Source of the DNA: Patescibacteria group bacterium
Lineage (GTDB): Bacteria > Patescibacteriota > CPR2 > UBA1875 > CAIMLA01
Direction of reading: 5' to 3'
NCBI GenBank assembly: GCA_041738615.1
Contig: JBGSPL010000003.1
Coordinates: 24,708 to 88,707, forward strand
DNA length: 64,000 bases
This document shows, in pieces, positions 1,119 through 60,179 of this stretch. Position 1 is the stretch's first letter; the number at the start of each line of letters is the position of its first letter. Below the pieces are notes generated by a model, which saw only the letters and a program-made list of their open reading frames with translations, had not been told where the DNA came from and did not search any database. The position numbers were made by a program, and so were the translations under genes.

Positions 1119-3326
1119 CTATAGTCTTCTTAGGCGCAACAAAAGTGAATTTGTAAGTACGCTAACACTCGAGAGGGCCATAGCCGCACCAGCAAACTCA
1201 GGGCGTAGAACCAAGCCGAAACTAACAAAGAATACTCCGGCCGCTACCGGGATACCCACGGTATTGTAAGCAAATGCCCAAAACAGGTTCTGTCGAATCT
1301 TGTTCATCGTCAGCCTGGAAAGACGGACCGCTCGTGCTACATCACGGATATCATTCTTGATCAAGACTACATCTCCAGACTCTATTGCAACATCAGTTCC
1401 GCTTCCCATAGCAATGCCAACGTCCGCTTTTGCGAGCGCTATCGAGTCATTAATTCCATCGCCTACAAAGATTACTCGGCCCAGTTCTTTCTGAATTTTA
1501 GCAACATTCTCGGCTTTCTCTTCTGGCAGAACCTCAGCAACGACACGTTGAACACCCACCAGGTGTGCAATACTCGCTGCCGTTACCTTGTTGTCACCCG
1601 TAACCATATATGTCGCAATCCCCATACTATGGAGCATTGCCACTGCCTCTTTGGCGTTTTCCTTAGGCTTATCCGCAATCGCAATCAAACCAACGAACAG
1701 TTTTTTGGTAAACAGAATCACAACCGTCTTTGATTCTTTCTCAAGGCGTAACTTGGCTTCTTCCTGTATTTCTCTGCCCATTATCTGCTCGGCGTATTTA
1801 GTGTTGCCTATAAAATATTCCGAGCCAGATATTTTTGCCGTTACTCCAAGTCCTGTAACAGAAGAGAAACCCGCAATCTTATCTACGGCTACCTTATTTT
1901 CCTTTGCGAAAGCGACAATTGCATCAGCAAGAGGGTGTTCACTCATCTTTTCAATCGAAGCTGCCACTCTCAATACGTCTGCCTCCGTATAACCGTCGGC
2001 CAACACCACCACATCCGTAACTTCGGGTTTACCCACTGTAAGTGTCCCTGTTTTGTCAAATATCACAGCACGGATTTTTTCTGCTGTTTCCAGTGCCTCA
2101 CCGGACTTGATAAGGATTCCATACTTCGCCCCCATGCCGGTGCCAACCATAATTGCGGCTGGAGTTGCCAAGCCTAGAGCACAAGGACAGGAAATCACCA
2201 AAACGGCAACCGCCATCATCAACGAAAATTCAAAACCCTGGCTAGTGGCAAAGAACCAATACAGAAAGGTGACAAGAGAAACCGACATCACGAAACCAAC
2301 AAAATAACCGGAGATTGTATCGGCGAGCTTCTGAATTGGGGCTTTGCTTCCCTGCGCCTCCTCAACGAGCCTTACAATCCGCGAAAGCACTGTACCCTCA
2401 CCAACTTCTGTTGCCCTTATTGTAATCGCACCGTGCCCGTTGATCGTGGCGCCTATGACTTTACTCCCCTTTTCCTTCGAAACAGGGAAAGCTTCGCCAG
2501 AAATCATGGACTCATCCACGCTGCTAGATCCTGATATCACCACGCCATCAACCGGTATTTTCTCGCCCGGCTTCACAAGAATTGTGTCCCCAATCCTCAC
2601 CTCGTCAATCCCGAGTACCAACTCTTTACCCTCTCGAATAACACAGGCGGTTGGAGCCTGTAAATTCAAAAGCTCTTTGATGGCAGAACCACTTTTTGCC
2701 TTGGCTTTTGCTTCAAGTACCTTACCTAATAGAATAAATGTAACCAAAACTGCAGCCGTCTCGTAATACACATCGCCGTTTGCCAGGAAAGTATTATAGA
2801 CGGAAAAAAGAAAGGCCGACATCGTACCTACTGCGACCAAAGTATCCATATTTGCCGTCCGGTTCCTCGCCGCCAAAAATGCTCCCCGAATAAATTGCCA
2901 CCCAGCCACAAACTGAACCGGCGTAGTTAGTGCCAAAAGCCATAATTTCCGTCCAGGAAATTCCATCAACATCTCTGCATTAATACCCAGCGGCATAAGC
3001 AGCTGCGGCATAGAGATTAAAAGCACAGGGAGAGAAAATAGCAACGCAAGCAAGAACTTTTGCACTAGCGAATCCTGATACCAACGAGTTGATTTTTCTT
3101 TGGGTGCAGTCATCTTAAGCTCTGTTGCACCGTACCCAAATAGTTTCACCCTTTTCTGAATCTCGGCAGAATTAATTATCTCCGCGTCGTACTCTACCAC
3201 CATTTTTTCAGAGGCAAGATTTACGTTAACTTTGGCGATACCCCCTACTTTAGATAGGTTGTCTTCAATTATTTTCACACAAGACGCACAATGCATCCCC
3301 GTAATTGTATATGTTCTTTTTTCCAT
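1119..3326 (-). CDS. copA: Copper-translocating P1B-type ATPase
   Basis: N-terminal HMA domain (GMHCASCV), CPC transmembrane metal motif, DKTGTLT phosphorylation site, [11 protein letters not shown] hinge. 735 aa. Confidence 0.92.
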
Positions 3327-3336
3327 GGTTATTCCT

Positions 3337-4686
3337 CTATTCTGTTACCGTAAAGTCGCCGCTATACATCCCCATCGAACAGGTAAAATGCAAAGTTCCG
3401 ACATCTTTTGGTGTAAAAGTTAATGTGTTCGGACCCTTTCGTAATAGCTGTTGAATGTCCATATCGGTCGCCAAGATATAGCTTGCACAAGTAGATATAT
3501 CCTTCACATCTATCTGCCAACTCACTGGAACACCCTTCTTTACGGTGAAGTGGCTTGGCGAATAACCGTACTTCGTAACGTCCATTTTCACCACCTGTTC
3601 CCCGTCTTGGACAGTCGCAGTTTGAGGCGTATCACTGTTGTCGGTTGTGGAAGTTGATACATCGAACTTTGGCAGCTGGAATCCTATCAGATTAAATGAT
3701 GCTGATAGATTTACAAGAGACAAGATAACCACTACCACACCCATAAAACGGAATAATTTCGTCGCAAACGAGCCCTTGGCAAATGAAGCTATAGAGCCGA
3801 CAAGTAATAATCCGGGGGTGGTACCGAGTGCAAATAGAGACATAAGTAGCGCCCCTGATATGAAACTACCAGAAGATATTGCCACAAGTTGCACAGCTTG
3901 AGTAAATCCGCAGGGCAAAAAAAATGTAAGAGCGCCCGAGATAATTGCGCCCGAGTGAGAGTATGCCCCCCGAGAGAACCTAGTCGGTACTAGATTGCTA
4001 ATGAATTTCGGTATGGTAAAGTTAATCTTTGATATTTTGGGAGATATCTCCGTCAGCTGCAGGCCAATGACAAGCATTACTACTGCAACCACAAACAGCA
4101 ACCAACCGTTTGCCGCCGGCGACACCTTGATGAATGTGCCTAATTCACCGAGAATGCCACCCAGTACAAAGAATCCAACTATTCTACCAATATTGAAGTA
4201 AATGTTTGGTATAAACGACTTAAGCCCCGTGATTTCTGGATGTTTTTCTCGAAATCTCGCCGTAAAACCAAGTACTAGGCCACCAACCAAGGCCATACAG
4301 GTCGAAAATCCTGCCGTCATACCGAGAAATACTACTACTCCGTAGCTGTAACTACCGCCCGTAATTGCGGGTAACAATTTTGAAGCGCCCGAAAGACTAA
4401 AAAGCACATAGATAATCGCTGCCAATAGAAGCGATAGTACCACGTCTAGGTAAACAGACGTTTTCTGGGTAAAGAACCCCGATTCCTCAAGTCCTAGTTT
4501 GTATCCGGCACTAACGATTACAGACTCTACCTGTTTGATGTCAAAATCGCCATCTACACGGACCTCGGCACGAACGTTACTGGCCTTAACTTTCGTAACA
4601 CCAGGAATCTGAGAAATATTGCTTTCTAGTAACAATTCACACGATTTGCAGTGCATCCCACTAACTTTAATCTTTTTCACTTCCAT
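3337..4686 (-). CDS. HMA-domain membrane permease (TauE/SafE- or DsbD_2-like) with C-terminal cupredoxin-like domain; putative copper-handling protein
   Basis: N-terminal [10 protein letters not shown] heavy-metal-associated domain. About 8 TM helices with an FLPCG motif. C-terminal ~90 aa beta-rich domain ([14 protein letters not shown]) resembling a cupredoxin fold. Adjacent to copA. Confidence 0.6.
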
Positions 4687-4695
4687 AAGATTGCC

Positions 4696-5082
4696 TTATT
4701 TCTTACTTCGGTAGTCTTTAATCGCCGCCTGCAGCGCATTGGCCGCGAGATTTGAGCAATGCATCTTTACTGGTGGCAAACCACCAAGAGACGCTGCCAC
4801 CTCGGCATTTGTTACCTTCTCTGCCTCGTCTATGGTCATCCCCTTCACCATCTCCGTAATACGGCTAGATGTGGCTACTGCGGCACCACAACCAAAGGTC
4901 TGGAACTTCACGTCCTTGATTGTTTCCTTGCCATCTACGAGCTCCACATCAAGGTAGATTTTCATAATGTCACCACAGGTTGGGTTCCCTGTCTCGCCCA
5001 CTCCGTTGGCGTCCTTTAGTATCCCTACGTTGCGTGGGTTCATAAAGTGGTCCATCACTTCTTTAGTATATAAATCTGCCAT
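4696..5082 (-). CDS. nifU: Fe-S cluster assembly scaffold protein, NifU/IscU N-terminal type
   Basis: Conserved cysteines in GNPTCGD...FQTFGCGAAVATSS...MHCSNLAANALQAAIKDY. 128 aa. Confidence 0.88.
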   Translation of the reverse strand: MADLYTKEVMDHFMNPRNVGILKDANGVGETGNPTCGDIMKIYLDVELVDGKETIKDVKFQTFGCGAAVATSSRITEMVKGMTIDEAEKVTNAEVAASLGGLPPVKMHCSNLAANALQAAIKDYRSKK

Positions 5083-5083
5083 T

Positions 5084-5440
5084 TCAGTCTCCTATCCTCT
5101 TTATGTTGTCTATTGTTACCAGAATCGCACCTTTGACGGGTAACCCTTGATTTTCGGTTATGTTTCTCGCGTAATCTAGCCACTTACCTGCGTCTTCGTA
5201 GGCTGCTTTTCCTGAGATCTTGTACCCTATCCAGTCATCACCCCATACCGCGAGTTCGACTTTACCATTTTTGTGTAAATTCGATACCGTTGTCGTCATG
5301 TAATTATCCGTAATTAGCAGCTTCTCGTCTGGCAAAACCTTCACATAAGCCGCTACACTAATATTCGGCTTATCCATAGAGCAAGTCGATATCGCGACCG
5401 GATTGTTCTCGATTAACTTTTTCGCTTCGTCTGAAATCAT
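5084..5440 (-). CDS. Pyridoxamine 5'-phosphate oxidase-like FMN-binding split-barrel protein
   Basis: 118 aa with PNPOx-like/flavin reductase-like pattern (NPVAISTCS...ISVAAYVKVL...LITDNYM). 4-nt overlap with nifS. Confidence 0.5.
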   Translation of the reverse strand: MISDEAKKLIENNPVAISTCSMDKPNISVAAYVKVLPDEKLLITDNYMTTTVSNLHKNGKVELAVWGDDWIGYKISGKAAYEDAGKWLDYARNITENQGLPVKGAILVTIDNIKRIGD

Positions 5441-6636
5441 CGTACTGGGCTCATATCTCTTAGTTTCTTTACGATTCCTGGAAGATGTTTCATCAACTCC
5501 TCTACGTCCTCTTTGCTGTTCATCTTGCCCAGCGAGAACCGGATTGCCCCATGGGCGTCAATATCCGCAAATCCCATGGCTTTCGTTACATGCGATGGCT
5601 CTAGACTCCCAGAAGTACAAGCTGAACCCGACGAAGCTGCAATCCCAACCATGTCCAGATTTATGAGGATTGATTCACCCTCGATATGTTTGAAAAGAAA
5701 TGAAACTATATGCGGTAACCGTTTGGACAACTTCTTTGGTCCCAGTAGCTCAACGTCTGGTATTTCTTTAAGGATCCTTGCGATCAGATAGTCGCATACT
5801 TCCGCGATTTTCTTCTCGTTTGTGGTCCTGTCTGCGGCTGCCTGTTTCATCGCCGCAGCCATACCGACGATGTATGGCACATTCTCGGTTCCGGCACGCA
5901 GATTACGCTCCTGAGCCCCACCTTGCTGCTGCGATGAGAACTTAGTACCTTTCTTCACGTAGAGAAGTCCCACTCCCTTGGGACCATAGAACTTATGCCC
6001 AGTAAGACTGAGCATGTCCACTCCAAGATCATGAACGTTGATATCGATGTATTGAAACGCCTGCACCGCGTCTGTATGAAATACCAGGGGCAGCGGGTTC
6101 CCCTCTTTCTGTCTCTTGTCTTTTGCTTTCTGTATAACCTTACCAATCTCGGCAATTGGTTCTACGGCCCCCATCTCATTATTGCCGTACATTACCGAAA
6201 TAATAGCTGTGTTGTCACGAATTGCTTCTGCTACGTCCTTGGGGTCTACGAGACCCTCTCGATCGACAGGAAGATAAGTTACATCAACACCATAAGTCTT
6301 GTGAAGATATTTTGCAGAGTCCAGAACACAATGATGTTCTACTGAGCTGACTATAATGTGAGGCGTGGCATGCAGAATAGTAGCCGCTGACTGGCAAACA
6401 CCCTTCAGCGCCAGATTATTGGATTCTGTAGCACCACTGGTGAAGATAATCTCTGAAGATTTCGCACCTAGTAGGTTCGCGATTTCTTCCCTAGCCTCAT
6501 TTACTGCCTCTTTTGCATCTCGCCCTAGAGAATAGATGCTCGAAGGGTTGCCAAAATGCTCAGTAAAATAGGGTTTCATTGCCGCAAGAACAGCTTCGTC
6601 TACAGGTGTCGTAGCCGCATGATCCATGTAAATCAT
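5437..6636 (-). CDS. iscS: Cysteine desulfurase (NifS/IscS, class V aminotransferase)
   Basis: MIYMDHAATTP N-terminus, SGATESNN, PLP-lysine region HKFYGPKG, active-site SSGSACTS. 399 aa. Confidence 0.92.
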   Translation of the reverse strand: MIYMDHAATTPVDEAVLAAMKPYFTEHFGNPSSIYSLGRDAKEAVNEAREEIANLLGAKSSEIIFTSGATESNNLALKGVCQSAATILHATPHIIVSSVEHHCVLDSAKYLHKTYGVDVTYLPVDREGLVDPKDVAEAIRDNTAIISVMYGNNEMGAVEPIAEIGKVIQKAKDKRQKEGNPLPLVFHTDAVQAFQYIDINVHDLGVDMLSLTGHKFYGPKGVGLLYVKKGTKFSSQQQGGAQERNLRAGTENVPYIVGMAAAMKQAAADRTTNEKKIAEVCDYLIARILKEIPDVELLGPKKLSKRLPHIVSFLFKHIEGESILINLDMVGIAASSGSACTSGSLEPSHVTKAMGFADIDAHGAIRFSLGKMNSKEDVEELMKHLPGIVKKLRDMSPVR

Positions 6637-6854
6637 TACTTGAGCTCCTTTTTTACTGTAGTGATACAGGACTTGCAGGCATTTACCTGAGCTCGCTCCT
6701 GATTTTCAATCTTTTTGTAGTCATCCCAGGAGATTAGCACTCCTACAGGATCCGAATATCGCAAAATCACGGTACCGGTGCCGCTTTTGAGGCCCCCCAG
6801 TATCTTTGATGCATTATTTGCTAGCTCTGCGGTAGTTATAAACTTTTCCTTCAT
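6636..6854 (-). CDS. Phd/YefM antitoxin-like small DNA-binding protein (orphan; leader gene of the nifS operon)
   Basis: 72 aa. ITTAELANNASKILGGLKSGTGTVILRYSDPVGVLISWDDYKKIENQ matches the Phd/YefM N-terminal fold pattern. 1-nt overlap with nifS. AGGAG RBS. No toxin gene follows. Confidence 0.5.
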   Translation of the reverse strand: MKEKFITTAELANNASKILGGLKSGTGTVILRYSDPVGVLISWDDYKKIENQERAQVNACKSCITTVKKELK

Positions 6855-6868
6855 GTGTCTCCTACAAA

Positions 6869-6894
6869 ATGTTACCCTACTTCTAGGGTAACAT
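6869..6894. promoter_or_regulatory. Perfect palindrome ATGTTACCCTA-cttc-TAGGGTAACAT (11-bp arms); candidate operator for the yefM-like/nifS/nifU operon
   Basis: Read directly from sequence. Lies 15-40 nt upstream of the yefM-like start codon, adjacent to its RBS. Confidence 0.55.
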
Positions 6895-6919
6895 TAACGG
6901 TAACTTTGTGTCAATATAT

Positions 6920-7393
6920 TTACGGTATCGTCGTCAGGTCTTTACTACACCAGCCGGTCTTTCCACTGTAAGTGACCTTCAACCAACCAGATTGTTCTTC
7001 CTCTACCGTGAGTTTCGTTTTGTCGGGAATGATTGTCAGCACAGCAGCCGTTGTAACTGCTGTTTGGCGCAAATTCAGGCCACCTTCTGAGTTCACATAG
7101 ACACTCTTTGGGGCCACGGTTGTAGGCTCTGTGGTTTCCTGAGCCTCCGACACAATCGAACCTTCGATCTTCTCCTCCGCCTTTATCTTGTTATCACTGG
7201 TATAAGCCCGATAAGCCGTATATACAACGCCACCTAGCAATAGAGCAAGAGCAAGACAGGCTACAACAGTTACCCAGATGCTTCTATTCGGCTCATCTAG
7301 CGTGATGATGTCCGAGGGCTTCTCTGCGATTAGCTCTTCCTCTGGCACCGCCACCATAAATTCTTCTAGTGTCTTTTTGCGCTTTGCATCCAA
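6920..7393 (-). CDS. Membrane-anchored protein with C-terminal SH3b (bacterial SH3) domain
   Basis: N-terminal TM helix, acidic linker, C-terminal VYVNSEGGLNLRQ...GWLKVTYSGKTGWCSKDL SH3b pattern. Paralog of 24708..25532. Confidence 0.6.
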   Translation of the reverse strand: MDAKRKKTLEEFMVAVPEEELIAEKPSDIITLDEPNRSIWVTVVACLALALLLGGVVYTAYRAYTSDNKIKAEEKIEGSIVSEAQETTEPTTVAPKSVYVNSEGGLNLRQTAVTTAAVLTIIPDKTKLTVEEEQSGWLKVTYSGKTGWCSKDLTTIP

Positions 7394-7405
7394 GGTCGTG
7401 CCTCC

Positions 7406-8269
7406 CTAGATTCCAGCCTTCGCTGGAATGACGGTTGGTTTTAGATTAAATAGTTTTATTGCATTCATTGTAGTACGTTCCAAAACTGTTTCCAATGGGA
7501 TACCCGAGGTGTCGGCTATAAACTGTGCCACCATAAAAGCGTTACTAGGTTCATTGCGCTCACCTTTTTTCTCGCCCGGTGCTAGGTACGGACAGTCCGT
7601 TTCTAAAACGATATGATCGAGCCCCACTTCTCTTATAAGTCTCTTATAAGTATCCGAGTAAGTAACGATACCGTTGAGTCCGATGCTATAGCCGAGTTCG
7701 ATAAATTTTCGCGCTGTCTTATACCCGCCGATAAAGCTGTGAATTACACCCGCTTTCTTTACAGGGTGTGCGGTAAGGATCTCTAGCAGATCTAGGTAAC
7801 CGTCCCAGCAATGGATCATTACTGGCTTTTCCACCTCGTTAGCGATATTGATGAGCTCGATGAGTGTTTCTTTCTGCCTAGCTTTCAATGCTTCCACATC
7901 GTCCGTTTCCTCGAAATGATGATAGTCGAGCCCAATCTCTCCGATTGCCACCACCTTCTCATCCCTTGCTAGCTCAAGATATTTATCCCGATCAAAGACC
8001 TCCCCCCTGGTATGTATTTCTATTGGTTCGAGCTCATTACTGTCCGCGTAAGTAAAGCTCCCTTCCTGCAAATGTACTGGGTGGATACCGACGGCAGACC
8101 AGACATTCTCGAAACGGTGGGCAGTATGAACCGACCGTTCGCTGGTAGAGTACTGGGTACCAACGTTTATAACACCCATCCCGAGTCCCAAGGCTCTCTG
8201 CAACACCTCATCACCATCCTCTTTATACGCGGCAAAATTTACGTGAGCATGTGTATCAACTAGTTTCAT
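7406..8269 (-). CDS. tatD: TatD-family metal-dependent hydrolase (DNase)
   Basis: MKLVDTHAHVNF... HxH motif, conserved TIM-barrel hydrolase acidic residues. 287 aa. Confidence 0.8.
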   Translation of the reverse strand: MKLVDTHAHVNFAAYKEDGDEVLQRALGLGMGVINVGTQYSTSERSVHTAHRFENVWSAVGIHPVHLQEGSFTYADSNELEPIEIHTRGEVFDRDKYLELARDEKVVAIGEIGLDYHHFEETDDVEALKARQKETLIELINIANEVEKPVMIHCWDGYLDLLEILTAHPVKKAGVIHSFIGGYKTARKFIELGYSIGLNGIVTYSDTYKRLIREVGLDHIVLETDCPYLAPGEKKGERNEPSNAFMVAQFIADTSGIPLETVLERTTMNAIKLFNLKPTVIPAKAGI

Positions 8270-9500
8270 GAATTGTCCTTATTTTTGGTATTACGTGTAT
8301 GGTTTTATCTTTCTTTACATACGGCAATTCACACTTGGCCCGCGGCATCAGCCCGGCTGCCATTGCGCCAGCTGCCCCAGAGAGGAGACCCACAATTATC
8401 AGTGTCTTGTCGTTTAAAAAATAGCTCAAAGCTATCAAGATAGCATAAAAGATAATCTTTGCAGCGTCTATTGCAGATTCCATGGCAAAGATGTATTCCT
8501 GACGACTGTTCTCATCGGCGTGAAGATAGTACTCCGAAGTGTATGGCGCTTGCCGAAGCGAACTTACCAGACTACGCGCCATGTTCAACGAGATGATCTG
8601 CACAAAAGTGTCGACAAAAGTAACCAGTACGAAGATAAATCCATCTAGTAAACTCCCCGTGGTGATGAACCGATGGCGGTTAGCATTATTTACTCTCTTC
8701 CCGACGAGGTATGTGACGATGATGGTCATTACAAGCGCCGCGGAGGTGATAAACCCTACAGACTGGTAGCTTTTGACGCTAGCATAGACGAAGAGCGGCC
8801 AAAAGACGAGGGAAACTGAAGCCTCTATTCCCGCCCCTCCATAGGAAATAAGGTCGCGAGATATATTACCTAGTTTGATTTTAGAAAGGTCTATAGGAGC
8901 TCCAGTGTGTAGCTCAGACTTTTTGAGCAGTGGAGTAAACACCAAAGCAAGCATTGCGATAACAATTAGGTAAAGAACACCGAACCCAAACCTGCTAGCT
9001 ATCAATCCTCCAGCCAGTGGTGCTACAGCACCGAGTACGGCTAGGATAATATACATTTTACTGACGTCCCTGGTAGCGTCTTTCTTCTTGGTGCTCCTCG
9101 AAAAGTCGTAGTGGTACCCTTGCCAGTATAACGCGAGCGCAATACCGCCACAGAGGCCGATAAACCACAGCGGCCAGTGATACGCGGGCAATGTAGAAAG
9201 CATCCAGAAGTGAGCGATCAGTGGTGGCATGGAAAGCGCTATCGCGTGCTTGGGGCCTACCTTGGAGATATACGAGGCAGAGACAAACTCGAAACTAAGC
9301 TCAGTCACGAACATCACGAGGTGCAAAACGAGAACATCACGCAGACTATATCCTAGCGAAAGCAAATATATAGGCACAAAAATGCTAATCATAGAGCAGA
9401 CGAAGGAACGCATACTCATGACTAAAAATATTTCGTTTATCTCGGTGTGTTTGATACGAAACATCTGATGTTGAACTAGTTGATGATCGCTAATAGACAA
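8256..9500 (-). CDS. MFS-type transporter (multi-TM)
   Basis: About 12 predicted TM helices, 414 aa, MFS-like loop spacing. Confidence 0.5.
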   Translation of the reverse strand: MSISDHQLVQHQMFRIKHTEINEIFLVMSMRSFVCSMISIFVPIYLLSLGYSLRDVLVLHLVMFVTELSFEFVSASYISKVGPKHAIALSMPPLIAHFWMLSTLPAYHWPLWFIGLCGGIALALYWQGYHYDFSRSTKKKDATRDVSKMYIILAVLGAVAPLAGGLIASRFGFGVLYLIVIAMLALVFTPLLKKSELHTGAPIDLSKIKLGNISRDLISYGGAGIEASVSLVFWPLFVYASVKSYQSVGFITSAALVMTIIVTYLVGKRVNNANRHRFITTGSLLDGFIFVLVTFVDTFVQIISLNMARSLVSSLRQAPYTSEYYLHADENSRQEYIFAMESAIDAAKIIFYAILIALSYFLNDKTLIIVGLLSGAAGAMAAGLMPRAKCELPYVKKDKTIHVIPKIRTIHETS

Positions 9501-9613
9501 ATCCCCTCCAGAAAGCTTAATGAAAAATGATTACACCGTCGAAGAACCAGGCTGTTCGAAATTATGGAAGCGGAAGCAAAGAATAATTTCTATCCAATTC
9601 TACTTCATGACTC

Positions 9614-10456
9614 TTATCTCATTAGTAATGTCGCTACGACGCATCCGAGTATTATGAAATCCGCCATGGCTTTTCTAAAAGTAAAGTGCTCTTTTAGATA
9701 AACCTTTGAGAAAGTAAGGGTCAAAAGAGGTGAAAGAAGCAAAATAAGCGTTGATTGAACAATTCCCAAGTAGATTATAGCGTAAAACCTAGCAATATAC
9801 TCTATATAAGTAATCAGTCCTGTTGCTAGAATATTCCGTTTTTCAAAACTAGGTAACTTACTGATTTTTGGGCGAAACACTATCCAAAATATCACAGTTA
9901 ATAATCCAGTTCGAAACAAATAGAATCCCACTGGAGACATTACCTCTAGTAGAACCTTCGCTAGCTGAGCCTCCAGCGACAACAAGAAAATAAATCCGAC
10001 TAAAGCTAATGTTGTCTTCTTGAAACCAATCTTAAAATGTTTCCTTTTCAACCTAGAAAGAATCAGTGCAAAGGCTGCAATGAGTGTAAGAACTAAAGGC
10101 CAAAGACTTCTTTCTGATGGAAATAATAGGGCGGCCATTATCACAGTAACTGGCCGGTCGAGTAATACAAATGGTTCTACATCGCAAAGTTCTTCTTTTT
10201 TAAGGCTATAAAAGAAGAACACGTTATAAAAATATGCGACAAATGTCTCTAAGATGAAAAGTAGCAAATACTTTGTAGTAAAAAACTCAATATCAACCCT
10301 GCCTAAAAAAGGGAAAACGAACAGCCCAATTATAAATAATATTGCCATAGAGAAAGGCAGGAACTGTTTATAGGTAATATTTTTTGTTTTCAAAATTACT
10401 TTATCTAGTATGCTCTCAGCTGAGTTTGCAAACATATTGATAATTGCAAAAATCAT
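9614..10456 (-). CDS. Integral membrane protein of unknown function
   Basis: 280 aa, about 8 hydrophobic helices. No motif recognised. Confidence 0.4.
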   Translation of the reverse strand: MIFAIINMFANSAESILDKVILKTKNITYKQFLPFSMAILFIIGLFVFPFLGRVDIEFFTTKYLLLFILETFVAYFYNVFFFYSLKKEELCDVEPFVLLDRPVTVIMAALLFPSERSLWPLVLTLIAAFALILSRLKRKHFKIGFKKTTLALVGFIFLLSLEAQLAKVLLEVMSPVGFYLFRTGLLTVIFWIVFRPKISKLPSFEKRNILATGLITYIEYIARFYAIIYLGIVQSTLILLLSPLLTLTFSKVYLKEHFTFRKAMADFIILGCVVATLLMR

Positions 10457-10472
10457 TTGCCCTCCACCGACA

Positions 10473-12035
10473 CTATTTTTCGAGCTCTAGCCGCGGGAAA
10501 AGCTGCGCTGGCTTAGTCACTTTCTGTCCTACCGGCAGGATAGACCAAGAATCCTTGATATTTGGCTCCGCTGCCAGCAGCCCCTTGATACCGAGTGATT
10601 TTGCAATCGCAAGTGAAGTACGAGGCATTACGGGATAAATCATCCAAGCGAGCTGGTGAATGCCCTCGAGAAGTCCCACGACTACCCATTTTAAATCATC
10701 TGTCTCCCCCGTTTTGGCAAGCTGCCACGGCCGAAGTTCCTCTATATACTGATCGCATGTTTTCACAAATGCTTCGATAGTTGCTAGGGCGTCTCCAAAA
10801 CGAAGCTCAGCAATTGATCTATCGTATTCTGCATATGTCTTCTTCCAATTCCAGATATCCTCTCCTACTCGCAGTAGATGCTCATCTGGGTGACGCTCTA
10901 CCTTTGGCACCACCCCATCACAGTATTTCTCTACCATAGTGACGACGCGCGAGACCAAGTTGCCAATACCATTCGCGAGGTCATAGTTGTAGCGTTCTGC
11001 AATCTTGGTCTCAGAAATGTCTCCGTCGGTACCGTAAGGTAAAGCACGCAAGACGGAATAACGAACGGCGTCTGAGCCAAACTTCTCCACTAACTCATGT
11101 GGTCGCAGTACATTACCAATTGATTTACTCATCTTTTTTCCATCAACTGTAAAGTAACCGTGAACGTAAAGTTGCTTCGTTGTCGGTAGTTTTAGAGCGA
11201 GAAGCATGGCTTGCCAAATAGTTGCGTGAACTCTAGCAATATCCTTTGCCATTAGCTGTACGTCCGCAGGCCAGAATTTCTCGGCAAGCTTGATCTCTTT
11301 TGGCCATCCAAGTCCTGTTAAATAATTTAGGAAAGCATCAATCCAAACATAAGTTGTCTGGGTCTCGTCGAAAGGCAAATCAATCCCCCAGGAAACATTT
11401 TCCTTCTTTCGGGAGACTGCCACATCGTCAAGGCCACCGCGAACGAATGCTAGGATTTCGTTCTTCCGCTCGACGGGCAAAATCTGGATTTCGTCCTCTG
11501 AAATCAGCTGTTCCAACCTGTCTTGGTACTTAGATAAGGCAAAAAGATACGCCTCCTCCTCGTGGATTTCGCATTCACGATTGTGATCTGGACAAACCTT
11601 GCCATCCACAAGCTCAGAAATAGTCTTGTATTGCTCACAACCTACGCAGTAAAGTGCCTGGTAAGAGCCTTTGTAAATGTCGCCCTGATCGTAAAGCTTC
11701 TGTGTGACCCACCTTACCGCTTCCTCATGTTGAGGGTCGGTGGTTCGTAAGAAGTTATCATATGTTATGTCCAAAGACTTCCAAGCGGTTTTAAATTTGG
11801 CCGCCACATCGTCGGTAAACTGCTTCGGATTCTGCCCGTTAGTCTCAGCAATCTCCTGAATTTTGGCGCCATGCTCGTCGGTACCCGTCATAAAGAAGAC
11901 ATTCTCCTTGCCATAGGCTAGACGATAATAACGAGCGAGCACGTCTGCCACTGTTGAGGTGTAGACGTGGCCAATGTGGGGCTCTGCGTTGACATAATAT
12001 ATCGGAGTTGTAACATAAAATTTATTTTTTGGCAT
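10473..12035 (-). CDS. metG: Methionyl-tRNA synthetase
   Basis: HIGH-type motif (PHIGHVYT), KMSKS, Zn knuckle CVGCEQY...CPDH. 520 aa. Confidence 0.93.
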   Translation of the reverse strand: MPKNKFYVTTPIYYVNAEPHIGHVYTSTVADVLARYYRLAYGKENVFFMTGTDEHGAKIQEIAETNGQNPKQFTDDVAAKFKTAWKSLDITYDNFLRTTDPQHEEAVRWVTQKLYDQGDIYKGSYQALYCVGCEQYKTISELVDGKVCPDHNRECEIHEEEAYLFALSKYQDRLEQLISEDEIQILPVERKNEILAFVRGGLDDVAVSRKKENVSWGIDLPFDETQTTYVWIDAFLNYLTGLGWPKEIKLAEKFWPADVQLMAKDIARVHATIWQAMLLALKLPTTKQLYVHGYFTVDGKKMSKSIGNVLRPHELVEKFGSDAVRYSVLRALPYGTDGDISETKIAERYNYDLANGIGNLVSRVVTMVEKYCDGVVPKVERHPDEHLLRVGEDIWNWKKTYAEYDRSIAELRFGDALATIEAFVKTCDQYIEELRPWQLAKTGETDDLKWVVVGLLEGIHQLAWMIYPVMPRTSLAIAKSLGIKGLLAAEPNIKDSWSILPVGQKVTKPAQLFPRLELEK

Positions 12036-49323: not shown

Positions 49324-49388
49324 GTATATATATTAGAGCCAGAGCAGAAAATTGTCCACTCGTAAGTAGGCCCCATCAACGGCGAAGG

Positions 49389-49417
49389 CCCCGGAACCTT
49401 GGCGGTTCCGGGGCCTT
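49389..49417. terminator. GC-rich perfect hairpin GGCCCCGGAACC-ttggcg-GGTTCCGGGGCC (12-bp stem) downstream of the foreign ORF
   Basis: Inverted repeat read from sequence. Lies between the stop of the 49426..49992 ORF and the ABC operon promoter. Confidence 0.5.
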
Positions 49418-50162: not shown

Positions 50163-50552
50163 ATGGCAATAAGAATCTTACTTGCAGAAGATGACATCCA
50201 GCTAGTCGACATGTACAGTCGCAAATTTGCGCTCGACGGCTTTGATGTTCAACTAGCCGAGGATGGTCAGAAAGCAATCGACATCCTGAAAACTGGTTTT
50301 GTACCAGATGTTGCCATTCTTGATGTAATGATGCCCCAAGTGGATGGCTTGCAAGTACTCGCCTATATCCGCGAGCAAAAAGAGCTAGATGATCTCATCG
50401 TAATCATGCTCACAAACCTCTCCGACGAGAAGACCGCAGAAAGAATCTATGCCCTCGGTGCCACTGAGTACCTCGTGAAAGCGGAGTTTACCCCACTCGA
50501 GGTTTCGGCCAAAGTAAAAGAACTGATCGAATACTACAAAAAAAAGAAATAA
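50163..50552 (+). CDS. Stand-alone response regulator receiver (REC/CheY-like) domain protein
   Basis: ILLAEDD...phospho-acceptor Asp in ILDVMMP, conserved T and K. 129 aa with no output domain. Confidence 0.85.
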   Translation: MAIRILLAEDDIQLVDMYSRKFALDGFDVQLAEDGQKAIDILKTGFVPDVAILDVMMPQVDGLQVLAYIREQKELDDLIVIMLTNLSDEKTAERIYALGATEYLVKAEFTPLEVSAKVKELIEYYKKKK

Positions 50553-50577
50553 AAAAGACCCCGACCGGGGTCTTTTT
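50551..50577. terminator. Bidirectional rho-independent terminator AAAAAAGACCCC-gacc-GGGGTCTTTTT
   Basis: 6-bp GC stem flanked by an A-run and a T-run. Lies between the convergent REC and thioredoxin genes. Confidence 0.8.
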
Positions 50578-51612: not shown

Positions 51613-52815
51613 ATGAAAACAGACACTAAACAACTAGGCTTTGCGCTTGGTCGCGACACTGCACTCTCGGTAGCAGAAATTTTTGCATACCTGAAGAGAT
51701 TAGGCATAGACACTTTGTCGCGCCTCCTCATCGGTGACATTCTGATTATTGAAATAGCTAGCGCCGAAAAGGATCGGATAGACATAAACTCACTTGGTGG
51801 TAGTATCAAGGTTTTCGAGGTTCTGGGTGAATTTACCTCAGGCACAGAAATCGCCGAAAAATTGCTTACCGAAGTCAATTACGAGTCAGAAAAGCGCGTT
51901 AACTTTGGCGTTTCGGGTTACGGAAATGTGAACAAAAATTTTGTTCTAAAAGCAGGTTACGACGTCAAAAATAAGCTCCAAGAGAGTGGCTATGCCGCAC
52001 GTTTCGTCACAGGGAAAACTGTCGATTTATCGAGCGTAATTGTAAACGAAAACAAGCTTATCGAGCGTGGATTCGAAGCAATCATCGTAAAAGCTGGCAC
52101 ACAATATATCTTAGGCAAAACACTTGCAGTCCAGGACTACAAAGCCTACTCAAAACGTGACTTTGGACGCCCAGTAAGGGATGCACGCAACGGAATGTTG
52201 CCACCAAAGCTTGCTCAAATGATGATAAACTTTGCCGCTTCCCCACTGGAATCCGTCCTATACGACCCTTTTTGTGGTAGTGGTACTATTCTACAAGAAG
52301 CCCTATTTCTCGGTTACCGTGACATTTACGGCAGTGATATAGAAAAGAAGAACATTACCGATACCCTTACCAATATGGAATGGCTCTACCAGCGCTTCGG
52401 GATGCCAAAAATTACCGAGGATAGAGTCTTTCTCTCTGATATTCTAAAGCCAGAAAGAGAGATCGCGAGCGCTGCAATAGTTGGTGAGGGCTACCTCGGT
52501 GAACCAGTGCGTAGACGTAAGGACAAGGCAATCGCCGACTCTCAGAAACTTGCTCAATTCTACATACACGCTCTTACGAACATGACCAAACAGCTTACAG
52601 CAGATGCGACTATAGTAATCGCTATCCCTTTCTATATAGTTGAGAAAGAATACATATACCTGCCGCTAATGGATAAACTCGAAAAGCTGGGTCTTACAAC
52701 GATAAACTACATCCCTAAAGATTTGGAAATCCGTCGTTTTGGGCGTGGGAACCTCACTTACTCACGAGCTGATCAGTTCGTGGGACGAGAAATCCTAGTA
52801 CTCAAAAAGAGCTAG
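51613..52815 (+). CDS. THUMP-domain class I SAM-dependent RNA methyltransferase (RlmL/Trm14-like)
   Basis: N-terminal THUMP-like region; methyltransferase motif I DPFCGSGTILQEA; 400 aa. Confidence 0.7.
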   Translation: MKTDTKQLGFALGRDTALSVAEIFAYLKRLGIDTLSRLLIGDILIIEIASAEKDRIDINSLGGSIKVFEVLGEFTSGTEIAEKLLTEVNYESEKRVNFGVSGYGNVNKNFVLKAGYDVKNKLQESGYAARFVTGKTVDLSSVIVNENKLIERGFEAIIVKAGTQYILGKTLAVQDYKAYSKRDFGRPVRDARNGMLPPKLAQMMINFAASPLESVLYDPFCGSGTILQEALFLGYRDIYGSDIEKKNITDTLTNMEWLYQRFGMPKITEDRVFLSDILKPEREIASAAIVGEGYLGEPVRRRKDKAIADSQKLAQFYIHALTNMTKQLTADATIVIAIPFYIVEKEYIYLPLMDKLEKLGLTTINYIPKDLEIRRFGRGNLTYSRADQFVGREILVLKKS

Positions 52816-52842
52816 CCGGCCGGCTAGCTCTTTGAATAATAG

Positions 52843-59976: not shown

Positions 59977-60179
59977 CGTCAGAATAAACTGACAGCATTC
60001 GTAAATTAGTAAGTCTAACTTACTTCTGCTTCTCGTTATTCTTCCTTTCCGAACAAAATCACAATTTTGTTCGGTGGCTCGACAAAAACCGTAGGATTTT
60101 GTCGAAAGAGGAGGAATCGCGAAAGGACGAAGACGTTGCCTCTACGTAACGTCATAATCCGCTAGCGTTTTCCGACGTG

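Follow-up and report, generated by a model that had tools for sequence, protein, structure and literature searches.

Why should a gene for an antitoxin-like protein, with no toxin gene beside it, stand at the head of an operon for Fe-S cluster biogenesis? The question is raised by a 64-kb stretch of DNA (the window) from a member of the Patescibacteria (CPR). Their genomes are tiny and encode few transcription factors that can be recognised, and little has been described of how these bacteria control their essential pathways. We found no description in the literature of a regulator of their NifS-NifU system. We consider it rather probable that the 72-aa protein encoded at this position is a domesticated Phd/YefM-fold protein which would bind DNA and, as an autorepressor dedicated to this one operon, control Fe-S biogenesis. 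The genes of the locus and their landmarks are as follows.

6920-7393: SH3_3 protein gene, upstream neighbour of the 72-aa ORF
6859-6862, minus strand: GGAG ribosome-binding site, 4 nt 5' of the ATG of the 72-aa ORF
6636-6854, minus strand: gene for the 72-aa Phd/YefM-fold protein (ATG 6852-6854, TAA 6636-6638), with a C-terminal CxxC
6675-6677, minus strand: C60 of the 72-aa protein, first Cys of CKSC
6666-6668, minus strand: C63 of the 72-aa protein, second Cys of CKSC
5437-6636, minus strand: nifS, class V cysteine desulfurase (PF00266, 3e-84; TIGR03402, 491 bits, just under that model's cut-off of 530.75)
5084-5440, minus strand: PNPOx_N-family small protein (5.5e-11)
4696-5082, minus strand: nifU/iscU-type scaffold (NifU_N; TIGR03419 NifU_clost, 192.8 bits, above the cut-off of 187.9)
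1119-4686, minus strand: probable 3' extension of the operon in the window's sub-clade, with intergenic gaps of only 9-10 nt
3337-4686, minus strand: HMA-DsbD_2-cupredoxin fusion gene, part of the 3' extension
1119-3326, minus strand: heavy-metal P-type ATPase gene, part of the 3' extension

The stop codon of the 72-aa ORF (TAA, 6636-6638) and the start codon of nifS (ATG, 6634-6636) have one base in common, at 6636, and profile matches give the order small ORF, nifS, PNPOx-like gene and nifU. Neither neighbour of the 72-aa ORF, nifS downstream or SH3_3 upstream, is a toxin gene. An earlier sequence-only reading had described the one-nucleotide overlap, this operon order and the lack of a toxin gene after the small ORF, and all three are borne out. 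A class V cysteine desulfurase and a U-type scaffold in one operon make up a minimal clostridial-type NifS/NifU system, and this locus is the only visible Fe-S cluster assembly operon. Most close relatives carry a GGAG or GAGG ribosome-binding site in the same place. The PNPOx_N gene is a variable member of the operon that only some relatives have, and the HMA-DsbD_2-cupredoxin and P-type ATPase genes are, judging from spacing, probably co-transcribed with it.

The small protein was assigned by profile and by structure. Taken alone, the window protein stays below the gathering threshold of PF02604 (E = 4.4e-5, 23.6 bits; threshold 29.8 bits). At the level of the family, PF02604 is matched by all 47 sampled relatives (best E 6.4e-10), and a precomputed match exists for most relatives, which by profile evidence places the family in PF02604. 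A search of 1.84e9 proteins with the family profile reached canonical antitoxins at E = 1e-8 to 1e-5, and 10 of 10 tested lay above the Pfam cut-off. PDB sequences searched with the family alignment profile gave chance-level matches only. When the family was aligned by hhalign with single sequences of YefM (E. coli) and Phd (P1), the matches were weak (E = 0.016 and 0.0015, respectively; probability 3-16%), and they served for residue register only. In this register the base-reading Arg10 of YefM/Phd is not conserved: its place is taken by Ala12 in clade 1 and by Gln in the remaining clades. The residues that every clade conserves (R32-Y33-S34, S16, L11 and G25) all lie in the N-terminal DNA-binding half.

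The AlphaFold2 model built from a 65-sequence alignment has a pLDDT of 91.3 and the topology β1α1α2β2β3α3 (E3-7, H8-13, H15-22, E27-32, E35-40, H43-71). It superseded a run on a shallow one-clade alignment (pLDDT 70.7), for which Foldseek ranked Phd/YefM first, yet with E >= 0.3 and an rmsd around 11 Å. For the final model, the top 49 Foldseek matches in the PDB are all Phd/YefM-fold antitoxins (Phd, YefM, Mtb RelB1/2, VapB46-N or PfiA), with probabilities of 0.9-1.0, TM scores (target) of 0.5-0.9 and rmsd values of 1-3 Å over a core of roughly 50 residues. They include the DNA-bound Phd structures 4zm0 and 4zm2 and the YefM structures 6l8e and 7v6w. At the level of the predicted model, membership of the Phd/YefM fold is thus confirmed. 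The N-terminal Phd/YefM pattern had been picked out from the sequence, and a lack of likeness to YefM/Phd had been named as the outcome that would count against it; likeness was found both in the PF02604 matches and in the 49 structural ones.

The C-terminal 20-25 residues form one helix that carries an invariant CxxC. The CKSC pair, also spotted in the sequence-only reading, has held up well: C60 and C63 are invariant in 116/116 close relatives, and across clade 2 too. Nearly all of the top ~28 representative clusters have a C-terminal CxxC; the canonical antitoxins ranked below them lack it, and their C-terminal tails are longer and unrelated. C60 and C63 are the only cysteines of the chain, and a conserved His is absent. 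Two cysteines per chain cannot by themselves bind a cluster.

The small gene lies upstream of nifS(-nifU) at every locus with downstream sequence, about 45 loci in at least four protein clades. These are the genome loci L001-L011 and L013, the metagenome loci L014-L031 except L022, and the clade 2 and distant-clade loci L032-L045. By this comparison, Saccharibacteria and other Patescibacteria keep the small gene in first place in their NifS-NifU operon. Its upstream neighbour varies, encoding an SH3 protein in the window and close relatives and being a different gene elsewhere. Usually nifS adjoins the small gene; in L003-L005, L010, L015, L016, L020 and L030 a variable gene or 350-420 nt lies between them. 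The interposed genes are MazG-like, NUDIX or IVS-type, none of them a toxin, and no toxin gene was seen at any of the ~45 loci inspected. Identity of the small protein across loci is 61-96%, tracking that of NifS (48-81%) and NifU (55-100%), so that it is about as conserved as NifS, and its length is constant at about 68-80 aa.

A place in front of nifS would also suit a protein that is mainly a partner of NifS and/or NifU. Its CxxC would be a sulfur acceptor or reductant, or the protein would restrain, as an antitoxin does, a cysteine desulfurase that could do harm, NifS standing in for the toxin and possibly serving as co-repressor too; DNA binding would then be of minor importance or would have been lost. 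The stop/start overlap in the window and a 4-nt gene overlap in L040 suggest coupled, stoichiometric synthesis with NifS, the C-termini of Phd/YefM proteins are partner-binding segments (PMC7544224), and the minimal NifS-NifU operon has no obvious electron donor or sulfur relay. The coupling, however, is not conserved, because many relatives have the intervening gene or 350-420 nt just mentioned. Moreover, the residues conserved in all clades sit in the DNA-binding half rather than in the tail, and the conserved repeat over the -10 element, described below, requires some binding protein. We regard a mainly partner-binding role as unlikely; it is compatible with autorepression, and the two are not exclusive.

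The putative control region occupies the space between the SH3 gene and the small ORF.

6909-6914, minus strand: predicted -35 hexamer TTGACA, with the SH3 gene stop 5 nt before it and TACCCT 18 nt after it
6899-6904, minus strand: third GTTACC box, repeating the proximal-arm box in direct orientation 12 bp further upstream
6884-6895, minus strand: promoter-proximal arm AATGTTACCCTA, containing the predicted -10 hexamer TACCCT
6885-6890, minus strand: predicted -10 hexamer TACCCT, preceded by TGT at 6891-6893 (extended -10-like)
6880-6883, minus strand: repeat centre GAAG, 4 nt (GATG, GAAG, AATG or flipped CATC, CTTC in relatives)
6868-6879, minus strand: promoter-distal arm TAGGGTAACATT, containing the GTAAC box; the arm lies around and just downstream of the predicted transcription start

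The two arms form a perfect 12+4+12 inverted repeat, AATGTTACCCTA-GAAG-TAGGGTAACATT (6868-6895), 13 nt upstream of the ATG of the small ORF. A perfect 11-bp palindrome had been reported at 6869-6894; the palindrome is real, and each arm is one base longer than stated. Four perfect hairpins with arms of at least 12 nt occur in the 64-kb window and none in 20 shuffles. Since the remaining three resemble terminators, such a palindrome is nothing unusual in itself, and the significance of this one comes from its conservation among relatives. The repeat occurs once in the window, where relaxed searches found no further operator copies and one-arm matches with up to two mismatches were at chance level (11 found, 13.4 expected). 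A generic promoter/terminator scan called neither a promoter nor a hairpin, TACCCT agreeing with the consensus at 3/6 positions and the hairpin tail falling short of the T-run rule.

Conservation of the palindrome together with the small ORF before nifS was the check that the sequence-only reading had set itself, and the relatives pass it. Both are present at 13/13 genome loci, and 17 of the 18 exact palindrome matches in 241 million metagenome records precede the small gene. The lone match without it, on a TARA contig (L022), is consistent with chance, as ~0.5 chance matches are expected by a rough estimate for a pattern of 20 specified bases. GGTAAC stands at fixed spacing in all 27 clade-1 loci (GGTAAG in L010), and the arms co-vary: CCGTA/TACGG in L004, CCTTA/TAAGG in L009, L014, L017, L024 and L031, and TACTA/TAGTA in L042. 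The third GTTACC box is confined to the window's sub-clade and L008. Of the 44 tabulated loci, two of which have incomplete upstream sequence, 41 carry a -35 hexamer TTGAC(A/T/C/G), or TTGAAA in L039, with a spacing of 16-18 nt, and so does L010, which was examined apart. In other clades the -10 position reads TACCTT, TACATT, TATATT, TATACT or TATAAT. The proximal arm is accordingly read as the (extended) -10 element of a conserved promoter, and the conservation of the upstream arm (TGTTAYNNT) is partly explained simply by this. Site architecture is not uniform, because several loci of clade 2 and of distant clades (L032, L034, L036, L039, L040 and L044) either lack the inverted arm or have direct repeats instead; the more distant clades have direct 12-nt repeats in place of the inverted repeat. 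Each short GTAC box is read by a single dimer in the solved structures of YefM on DNA (PMC7544224), and therefore the site more likely comprises two or three GTTAC/GTAAC boxes for two or more dimers, rather than one dimer spread over 26 bp.

An inverted repeat of this kind could also be an RNA element unrelated to the small protein. It would then be a hairpin of the 5' UTR, or an intrinsic terminator by which the operon is shielded from transcription of the SH3/TatD genes upstream. On the minus strand the hairpin is followed by TTTTGTAGG in the window (aTTTTaTtt in the consensus), its predicted RNA fold has -20.3 kcal/mol (z = -3.0), pairing is preserved by compensatory changes, and A-runs and T-runs often flank the arms (L004-L006, L042). 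Against this, the stem sequence itself hardly varies even where protein identity falls to 61%, and the flanking intergenic DNA is unconserved, and the element stays with the small gene where the SH3 gene is ~1.9 kb off (L006, L007) or absent. The upstream arm contains TAnnnT with a conserved TTGACA 16-18 nt before it, and transcripts from the predicted promoter would be unable to form the hairpin because their start would fall inside the repeat. In addition, the stem of L042 has only 2 G-C pairs, L011 and L013 are unpaired at two inner positions and retain GTTACC/GGTAAC, and the terminator scan made no call at the repeat. A pure RNA element is improbable on these grounds; the repeat may double as a terminator of read-through transcripts.

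If the repeat is an operator, it could still belong to a different, unlinked transcription factor, the small protein having another role. Co-occurrence alone cannot show which protein binds, because the cis element travels with the operon, and the same association of site and gene would be expected for any cis element there; the canonical base-reading Arg is also missing from the small protein. However, the Phd/YefM family generally autoregulates through promoter-overlapping repeats (PMC1802561, PMC7544224), and the site is found at the small-gene promoter only, as is usual for an autoregulator that serves a single operon. Different protein clades are also accompanied by the CCTTA variant of the half-site, and site architecture shifts between clades. 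We give an unlinked factor little chance. An ordinary orphan antitoxin lying beside nifS by chance, be it a decaying toxin-antitoxin remnant or one whose toxin is encoded elsewhere, is what the public annotation of relatives ('type II toxin-antitoxin system Phd/YefM family antitoxin') would suggest, and is extremely improbable and effectively refuted by the comparative data: the same position in ~45 loci and at least four clades, housekeeping-level conservation, constant length, the invariant CxxC, and neither the adjacent cognate toxin (none at the inspected loci) nor, as far as these sequences tell, the patchy mobile distribution of a type II module.

The best reading is thus an autorepressor in the role of IscR or SufR, in which the small protein would bind DNA and the CxxC would serve as sensor. 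By its sequence, a conserved sigma-70-type promoter (TTGACA, 18 nt, TGT-TACCCT) drives the operon, and the GTTAC/GTAAC boxes, the 12+4+12 inverted repeat plus the third box 12 bp upstream, overlap its -10 hexamer and predicted start. Dimers would bind these boxes via the N-terminal β1-α1-α2 and β2-β3 surface, like Phd/YefM, and block RNA polymerase. In footprints, YefM protects the -10 box of the promoter from which it is itself expressed, where paired boxes lie at a 12-bp distance (PMC1802561), and DNA binding is tuned by the toxin at the YefM C-terminus (PMC7544224). The C-terminal helix of real antitoxins binds the toxin as co-repressor, and the same helix here carries the invariant CxxC. 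At least two tails might share an Fe-S cluster that NifS/NifU have assembled, or they might bind metal or be joined as a disulfide or persulfide, and DNA-bound dimers might thereby be stabilised or bridged. More specifically, and only as a tentative suggestion that we think less likely than not, the CxxC tails within one dimer, or those of two dimers on the DNA, may jointly ligate a NifU-delivered Fe-S cluster, or a NifS-derived persulfide may bridge them, so that the cofactor would be the co-repressor in the toxin's place, ordering and bridging the antitoxin C-termini. If a cluster is involved, the operon would be repressed while Fe-S supply is good, and de-repressed when iron limitation or oxidative stress deprives the protein of its cluster. 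In the window, the operon under the proposed control would comprise the phd-like gene, nifS, the PNPOx gene, nifU and probably the copper-export genes.

The proposed autorepressor resembles three kinds of known system in different ways. With YefM/Phd (PF02604; yefM-yoeB, phd-doc) it shares the N-terminal β1α1α2β2β3α3 fold, small size, first place in the operon and a C-terminal helix or tail as the regulatory part, and the 12-bp spacing of short boxes over its own -10 is like that of the YefM L/S repeats (PMC1802561). Unlike YefM/Phd, it has no toxin gene, its short C-terminus carries the CxxC where those antitoxins have their toxin-binding segment, it is followed by the essential housekeeping genes nifS and nifU, and conservation is vertical and housekeeping-like, not patchy. 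Its box is GTTAC/GTTAY versus (T)GTAC(A), and Ala or Gln stands in the place of Arg10.

Both IscR and SufR bind an Fe-S cluster, repress their own operons and recognise conserved inverted repeats or palindromes (PMC8593673). IscR (Rrf2, [2Fe-2S], iscRSUA) is encoded by the first gene of its own desulfurase/scaffold operon, with a conserved inverted repeat in the promoter and the same feedback from Fe-S supply to transcription as that proposed here (PMC8593673). Profile searches in Pfam/NCBIfam gave no Rrf2 or winged-helix match for the small protein, and its fold is Phd/YefM; it has two Cys per chain versus three Cys and one His in IscR, and its cluster is a putative one. SufR (DeoR-type, [4Fe-4S]; cyanobacteria and actinobacteria) is likewise the dedicated autorepressor of a single Fe-S biogenesis operon and binds a perfect palindrome conserved only at its own locus, like the repeat here (PMC8593673). 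It differs in fold, in having a four-Cys motif in one chain, and in serving SUF rather than NifS/NifU machinery.

Antitoxin-type DNA-binding folds are reused as cellular regulators in NikR (RHH) and AbrB/SpoVT (AbrB/MazE swapped hairpin), where a small dimeric DNA-binding module plus a sensing part controls housekeeping genes. The 72-aa protein would follow the same principle of reuse with a different fold. We found no described example in the literature of the Phd/YefM fold reused in this way, and the small protein is probably a repressor of the NifS-NifU operon without prior description. With its 72-aa protein, a promoter-operator of 50 bp and a pair of cysteines, the locus is a concrete candidate that lends itself to testing. 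If the autorepressor reading is true, the Phd/YefM antitoxin fold would have been recruited as a housekeeping regulator, as known for the RHH and AbrB folds, in a non-orthologous replacement of IscR or SufR, and the label 'type II toxin-antitoxin system antitoxin' on hundreds of these genes would need correcting. If cofactor-bridged tails also prove true, the protein would represent a new class of transcription factors, with an antitoxin fold that senses Fe-S or sulfane sulfur, and would be the first identified Fe-S biogenesis regulator in the Candidate Phyla Radiation.

The copper genes after nifU suggested a further role for the CxxC, that of a Cu(I) sensor. This was set aside as a general explanation, because the copper genes are linked to the operon only in the window's sub-clade, and in L036 the copper genes have a CsoR of their own. 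Within that sub-clade, their apparent place in the same operon would link Fe-S assembly to copper stress.

The minus-strand ORF at 6636-6854 encodes a 72-aa protein, MKEKFITTAELANNASKILGGLKSGTGTVILRYSDPVGVLISWDDYKKIENQERAQVNACKSCITTVKKELK, and a GGAG motif lies 4 nt 5' of its ATG on the same strand. As read from the sequence alone, the TAA stop of this small gene and the ATG of nifS have one base in common, and domain matches bear out the same-strand order of a cysteine desulfurase, a PNPOx-like protein and a NifU scaffold downstream. The surrounding features are as follows.

Minus strand, next after the small gene: class V cysteine desulfurase (PF00266, 3e-84; top NCBIfam model FeS_nifS)
5084-5440, minus strand: PNPOx_N-family protein of 118 aa, an FMN-binding split-barrel, between nifS and nifU
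Minus strand: U-type scaffold (nifU), whose NifU_clost match exceeds the model cut-off
1119-4686, minus strand: HMA-DsbD_2-cupredoxin fusion and heavy-metal P-type ATPase, after nifU with gaps of only 9-10 nt
Upstream neighbour of the small gene: SH3_3 protein gene
6920-12035, minus strand: syntenic stretch upstream of the small gene, compared with genome loci L001-L013 and with L032 and L040 from the more remote clades

The gene order MetRS, EamA-type transporter, multi-pass membrane protein, TatD, SH3-domain protein, Phd-CxxC, NifS, NifU is largely syntenic in Saccharibacteria, and distant clades keep part of it (MetRS, EamA, TatD). The PNPOx_N protein, present in some relatives only (L001, L002, L004, L025, and L028), might act in cluster assembly as a flavin-dependent donor of electrons.

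The assignment of the small protein to the Phd/YefM type holds, and its membership of the fold is established. The window protein matches PF02604 (PhdYeFM_antitox) with E = 4.4e-5, under the gathering score. A search of 5.8 billion proteins yielded 115 close relatives (clade 1) with 55-97% identity, most of them 70-80 aa long, from Saccharibacteria, Patescibacteria, and WS5; all of the 47 sampled members matched PF02604 (best, 6.4e-10). A more remote clade 2, located via the palindrome itself, comprises 43 proteins of 68-90 aa with about 30-38% identity. When a profile built from both clades was run against 1.84 billion representative sequences, only 21 clusters reached E <= 1e-10. A C-terminal CxxC was found in nearly all of the top ~28 clusters, and canonical antitoxins without it ranked below them, 10 of 10 tested exceeding the Pfam cut-off. 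The AlphaFold2 model (65-sequence alignment; pLDDT 91.3) has the topology β1α1α2β2β3α3, as has been reported for the N-terminal region of YefM (PMC7544224). In a Foldseek search of the PDB, its top 49 matches were Phd/YefM-fold antitoxins only, DNA-bound Phd and YefM among them; the E-values are modest (6e-3 and up) because the domain is tiny.

The small gene lies 5' of nifS and nifU in all 12 genome loci with downstream sequence, and likewise in the metagenome loci, clade 2, and more distant CxxC clades. The absence of a following toxin gene extends across genome and metagenome loci: either nifS follows directly, or a variable non-toxin gene encoding a MazG-like, NUDIX, or 23S-IVS-type four-helix protein is interposed, and no known partner toxin was found among these genes in the loci inspected. 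Databases annotate the relatives as antitoxins. Because the defining toxin was looked for and is absent, the small protein belongs to the Phd/YefM fold family but to no toxin-antitoxin system. The junction with nifS is a hot spot for inserted genes, which encode a 23S-rRNA-IVS-type four-helix protein, MazG-like pyrophosphohydrolases, or a NUDIX hydrolase, and one 218-aa protein (P0163) is either a fusion of the Phd-CxxC protein to a NUDIX domain or a frameshift call. Insertions between the small gene and nifS lie at:

L003, 4186-4590
L004, 4177-4623
L010, 4177-4587
L005, 4219-4641

Across loci, the small protein is as highly conserved as NifS and NifU, with Phd-like/NifS/NifU identities of 61/67/64% in L013 and 69/48/55% in L009. 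Both cysteines of the C-terminal CKSC pair, C60 and C63, are invariant in 116/116 clade-1 sequences and throughout clade 2. The residues invariant across both clades (L11, S16, G25, R32, Y33, S34, V37, C60, K61, and C63) map to the CKxC motif and the putative DNA-binding half.

Upstream of the small gene, the inverted repeat AATGTTACCCTA-GAAG-TAGGGTAACATT occupies 6868-6895. The palindrome reported from the sequence alone is thus real, but its arms are each one base longer than the 11 bp proposed. Shuffled sequence contained no perfect hairpins of such size; the window contains three besides this one, and therefore the palindrome by itself is unremarkable. Other perfect or near-perfect hairpins (52806-52833, 49385-49417, 50552-50577, and 60049-60105; shapes 14+0+14, 14+5+14, and 12+2+12, plus a cluster around 60.05-60.3 kb) look like intrinsic terminators, with G+C-rich stems and flanking A-runs and T-runs. 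The expected conservation of palindrome and small ORF in relatives was found, the repeat lying 5' of the gene in 13/13 genome loci, displaced by 80-220 nt insertions in L003, L010, and L012. Among 241 million metagenome records, GTTACCNTAGAWGTANGGTAAC matched at 18 loci, 17 of them with the small gene immediately downstream. An exact 22-nt copy in a GC-richer marine TARA contig (L022, 4188-4209) has neither a Phd-like gene nor nifS in its vicinity; it probably arose by chance, in line with a rough estimate of chance matches. Insertions between operator and start codon (about 80 nt in L003/L019/L027, 220 nt in L010, 126 nt in L012, 107 nt in L017, and 98 nt in L025), some with terminal inverted repeats such as GTCATTC...GGATGAC (L010, L012), look like miniature mobile elements; operator and start codon are both retained.

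Alignment of all loci revealed a fixed promoter, TTGACA, 16-18 nt, (A/T)GT-TAYNNT, whose -10 varies by clade (TACCCT, TACCTT, TACATT, TATATT, TATACT, TATAAT). The predicted elements in the window are:

6909-6914: predicted -35
6885-6890: predicted -10, within the upstream arm

Because the -10 lies inside the upstream arm, transcription should start within or beside the downstream arm, the repeat spanning about -15 to +13 relative to this predicted start. Paired changes in both arms occur in several lineages (CCGTA/TACGG, CCTTA/TAAGG, TACTA/TAGTA), the 4-nt centre flips among loci (GATG vs CATC), and L011 and L013 have lost the inner symmetry and retained GTTACC and GGTAAC. Loci of the window's sub-clade contain an additional GTTACC 12 bp upstream, the third such box. 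A number of clade 2 and distant loci instead show either direct repeats of 12 nt (TGTTATATTACT), in two to four copies, or a GTTATA in direct orientation 12 nt upstream. In two loci, tandem perfect copies of TGTTATATTACT running from the -10 hexamer replace the inverted repeat:

L032, 4935-4985
L036, upstream of 3028

Such a switch from inverted to direct repeats is unusual for a presumed single regulator family. Judged from the aligned sites, what the architectures share is a GTTAY box at the -10, accompanied by extra copies 12 bp (direct) or 17 bp (inverted) away.

YefM covers the -10 of its own promoter, using a pair of TGTACA boxes with a 12-bp spacing (PMC1802561). The S. aureus complex shows one GTAC box read per YefM dimer, in one major groove, and DNA affinity is set by toxin binding to the C-termini (PMC7544224). 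By analogy, we infer that dimers of the small protein would sit on the GTTAC/GTAAC boxes and keep RNA polymerase off the promoter; the protein is thus a putative autorepressor of its Fe-S operon. Its C-terminal helix, in which the CxxC is invariant, may stand in for the toxin-binding segment, and two chains together would offer four cysteines that could ligate an Fe-S cluster or a metal, or form a disulfide/persulfide. Such a cofactor would make repression respond to the Fe-S supply or to the redox state, in the manner of IscR and SufR (PMC8593673), although the small protein belongs to neither family. We found no description of a Phd/YefM-fold protein associated with an Fe-S operon in the literature searched; the protein is a specific candidate for regulating an essential pathway of CPR bacteria, which simple experiments can test.

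As caveats to autorepression, the guanine-reading Arg of YefM is replaced by Ala or Gln, the site architecture differs among clades, and conservation of the upstream arm is partly simply that of the -10 itself. The site may conceivably be used by another regulator. The overlapping stop and start codons suggest that the small protein might bind NifS/NifU, which could coexist with regulation. The repeat might also act as an RNA terminator or hairpin, given its T-run and -20 kcal/mol fold; against this stand its conservation at the sequence level, the geometry of the promoter, the A/U-rich stem of the remote-clade locus L042, and its independence of the upstream gene. It may have an insulating function of a secondary kind. 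The nifS-nifU position, the NifS/NifU-level conservation, and the invariant cysteines all but exclude a decaying orphan antitoxin.

Given the short gaps after nifU, the copper genes of the window are apparently in the same operon. They follow nifU only in the window's sub-clade (L001, L002, L003, L016, and L018), which is also the sub-clade with the third GTTACC box; in the clade 2 locus L036, they are divergent and accompanied by a CsoR-type repressor of their own. The linkage in the window's sub-clade suggests that Fe-S assembly and copper export are regulated together, or perhaps that the CxxC binds Cu(I).
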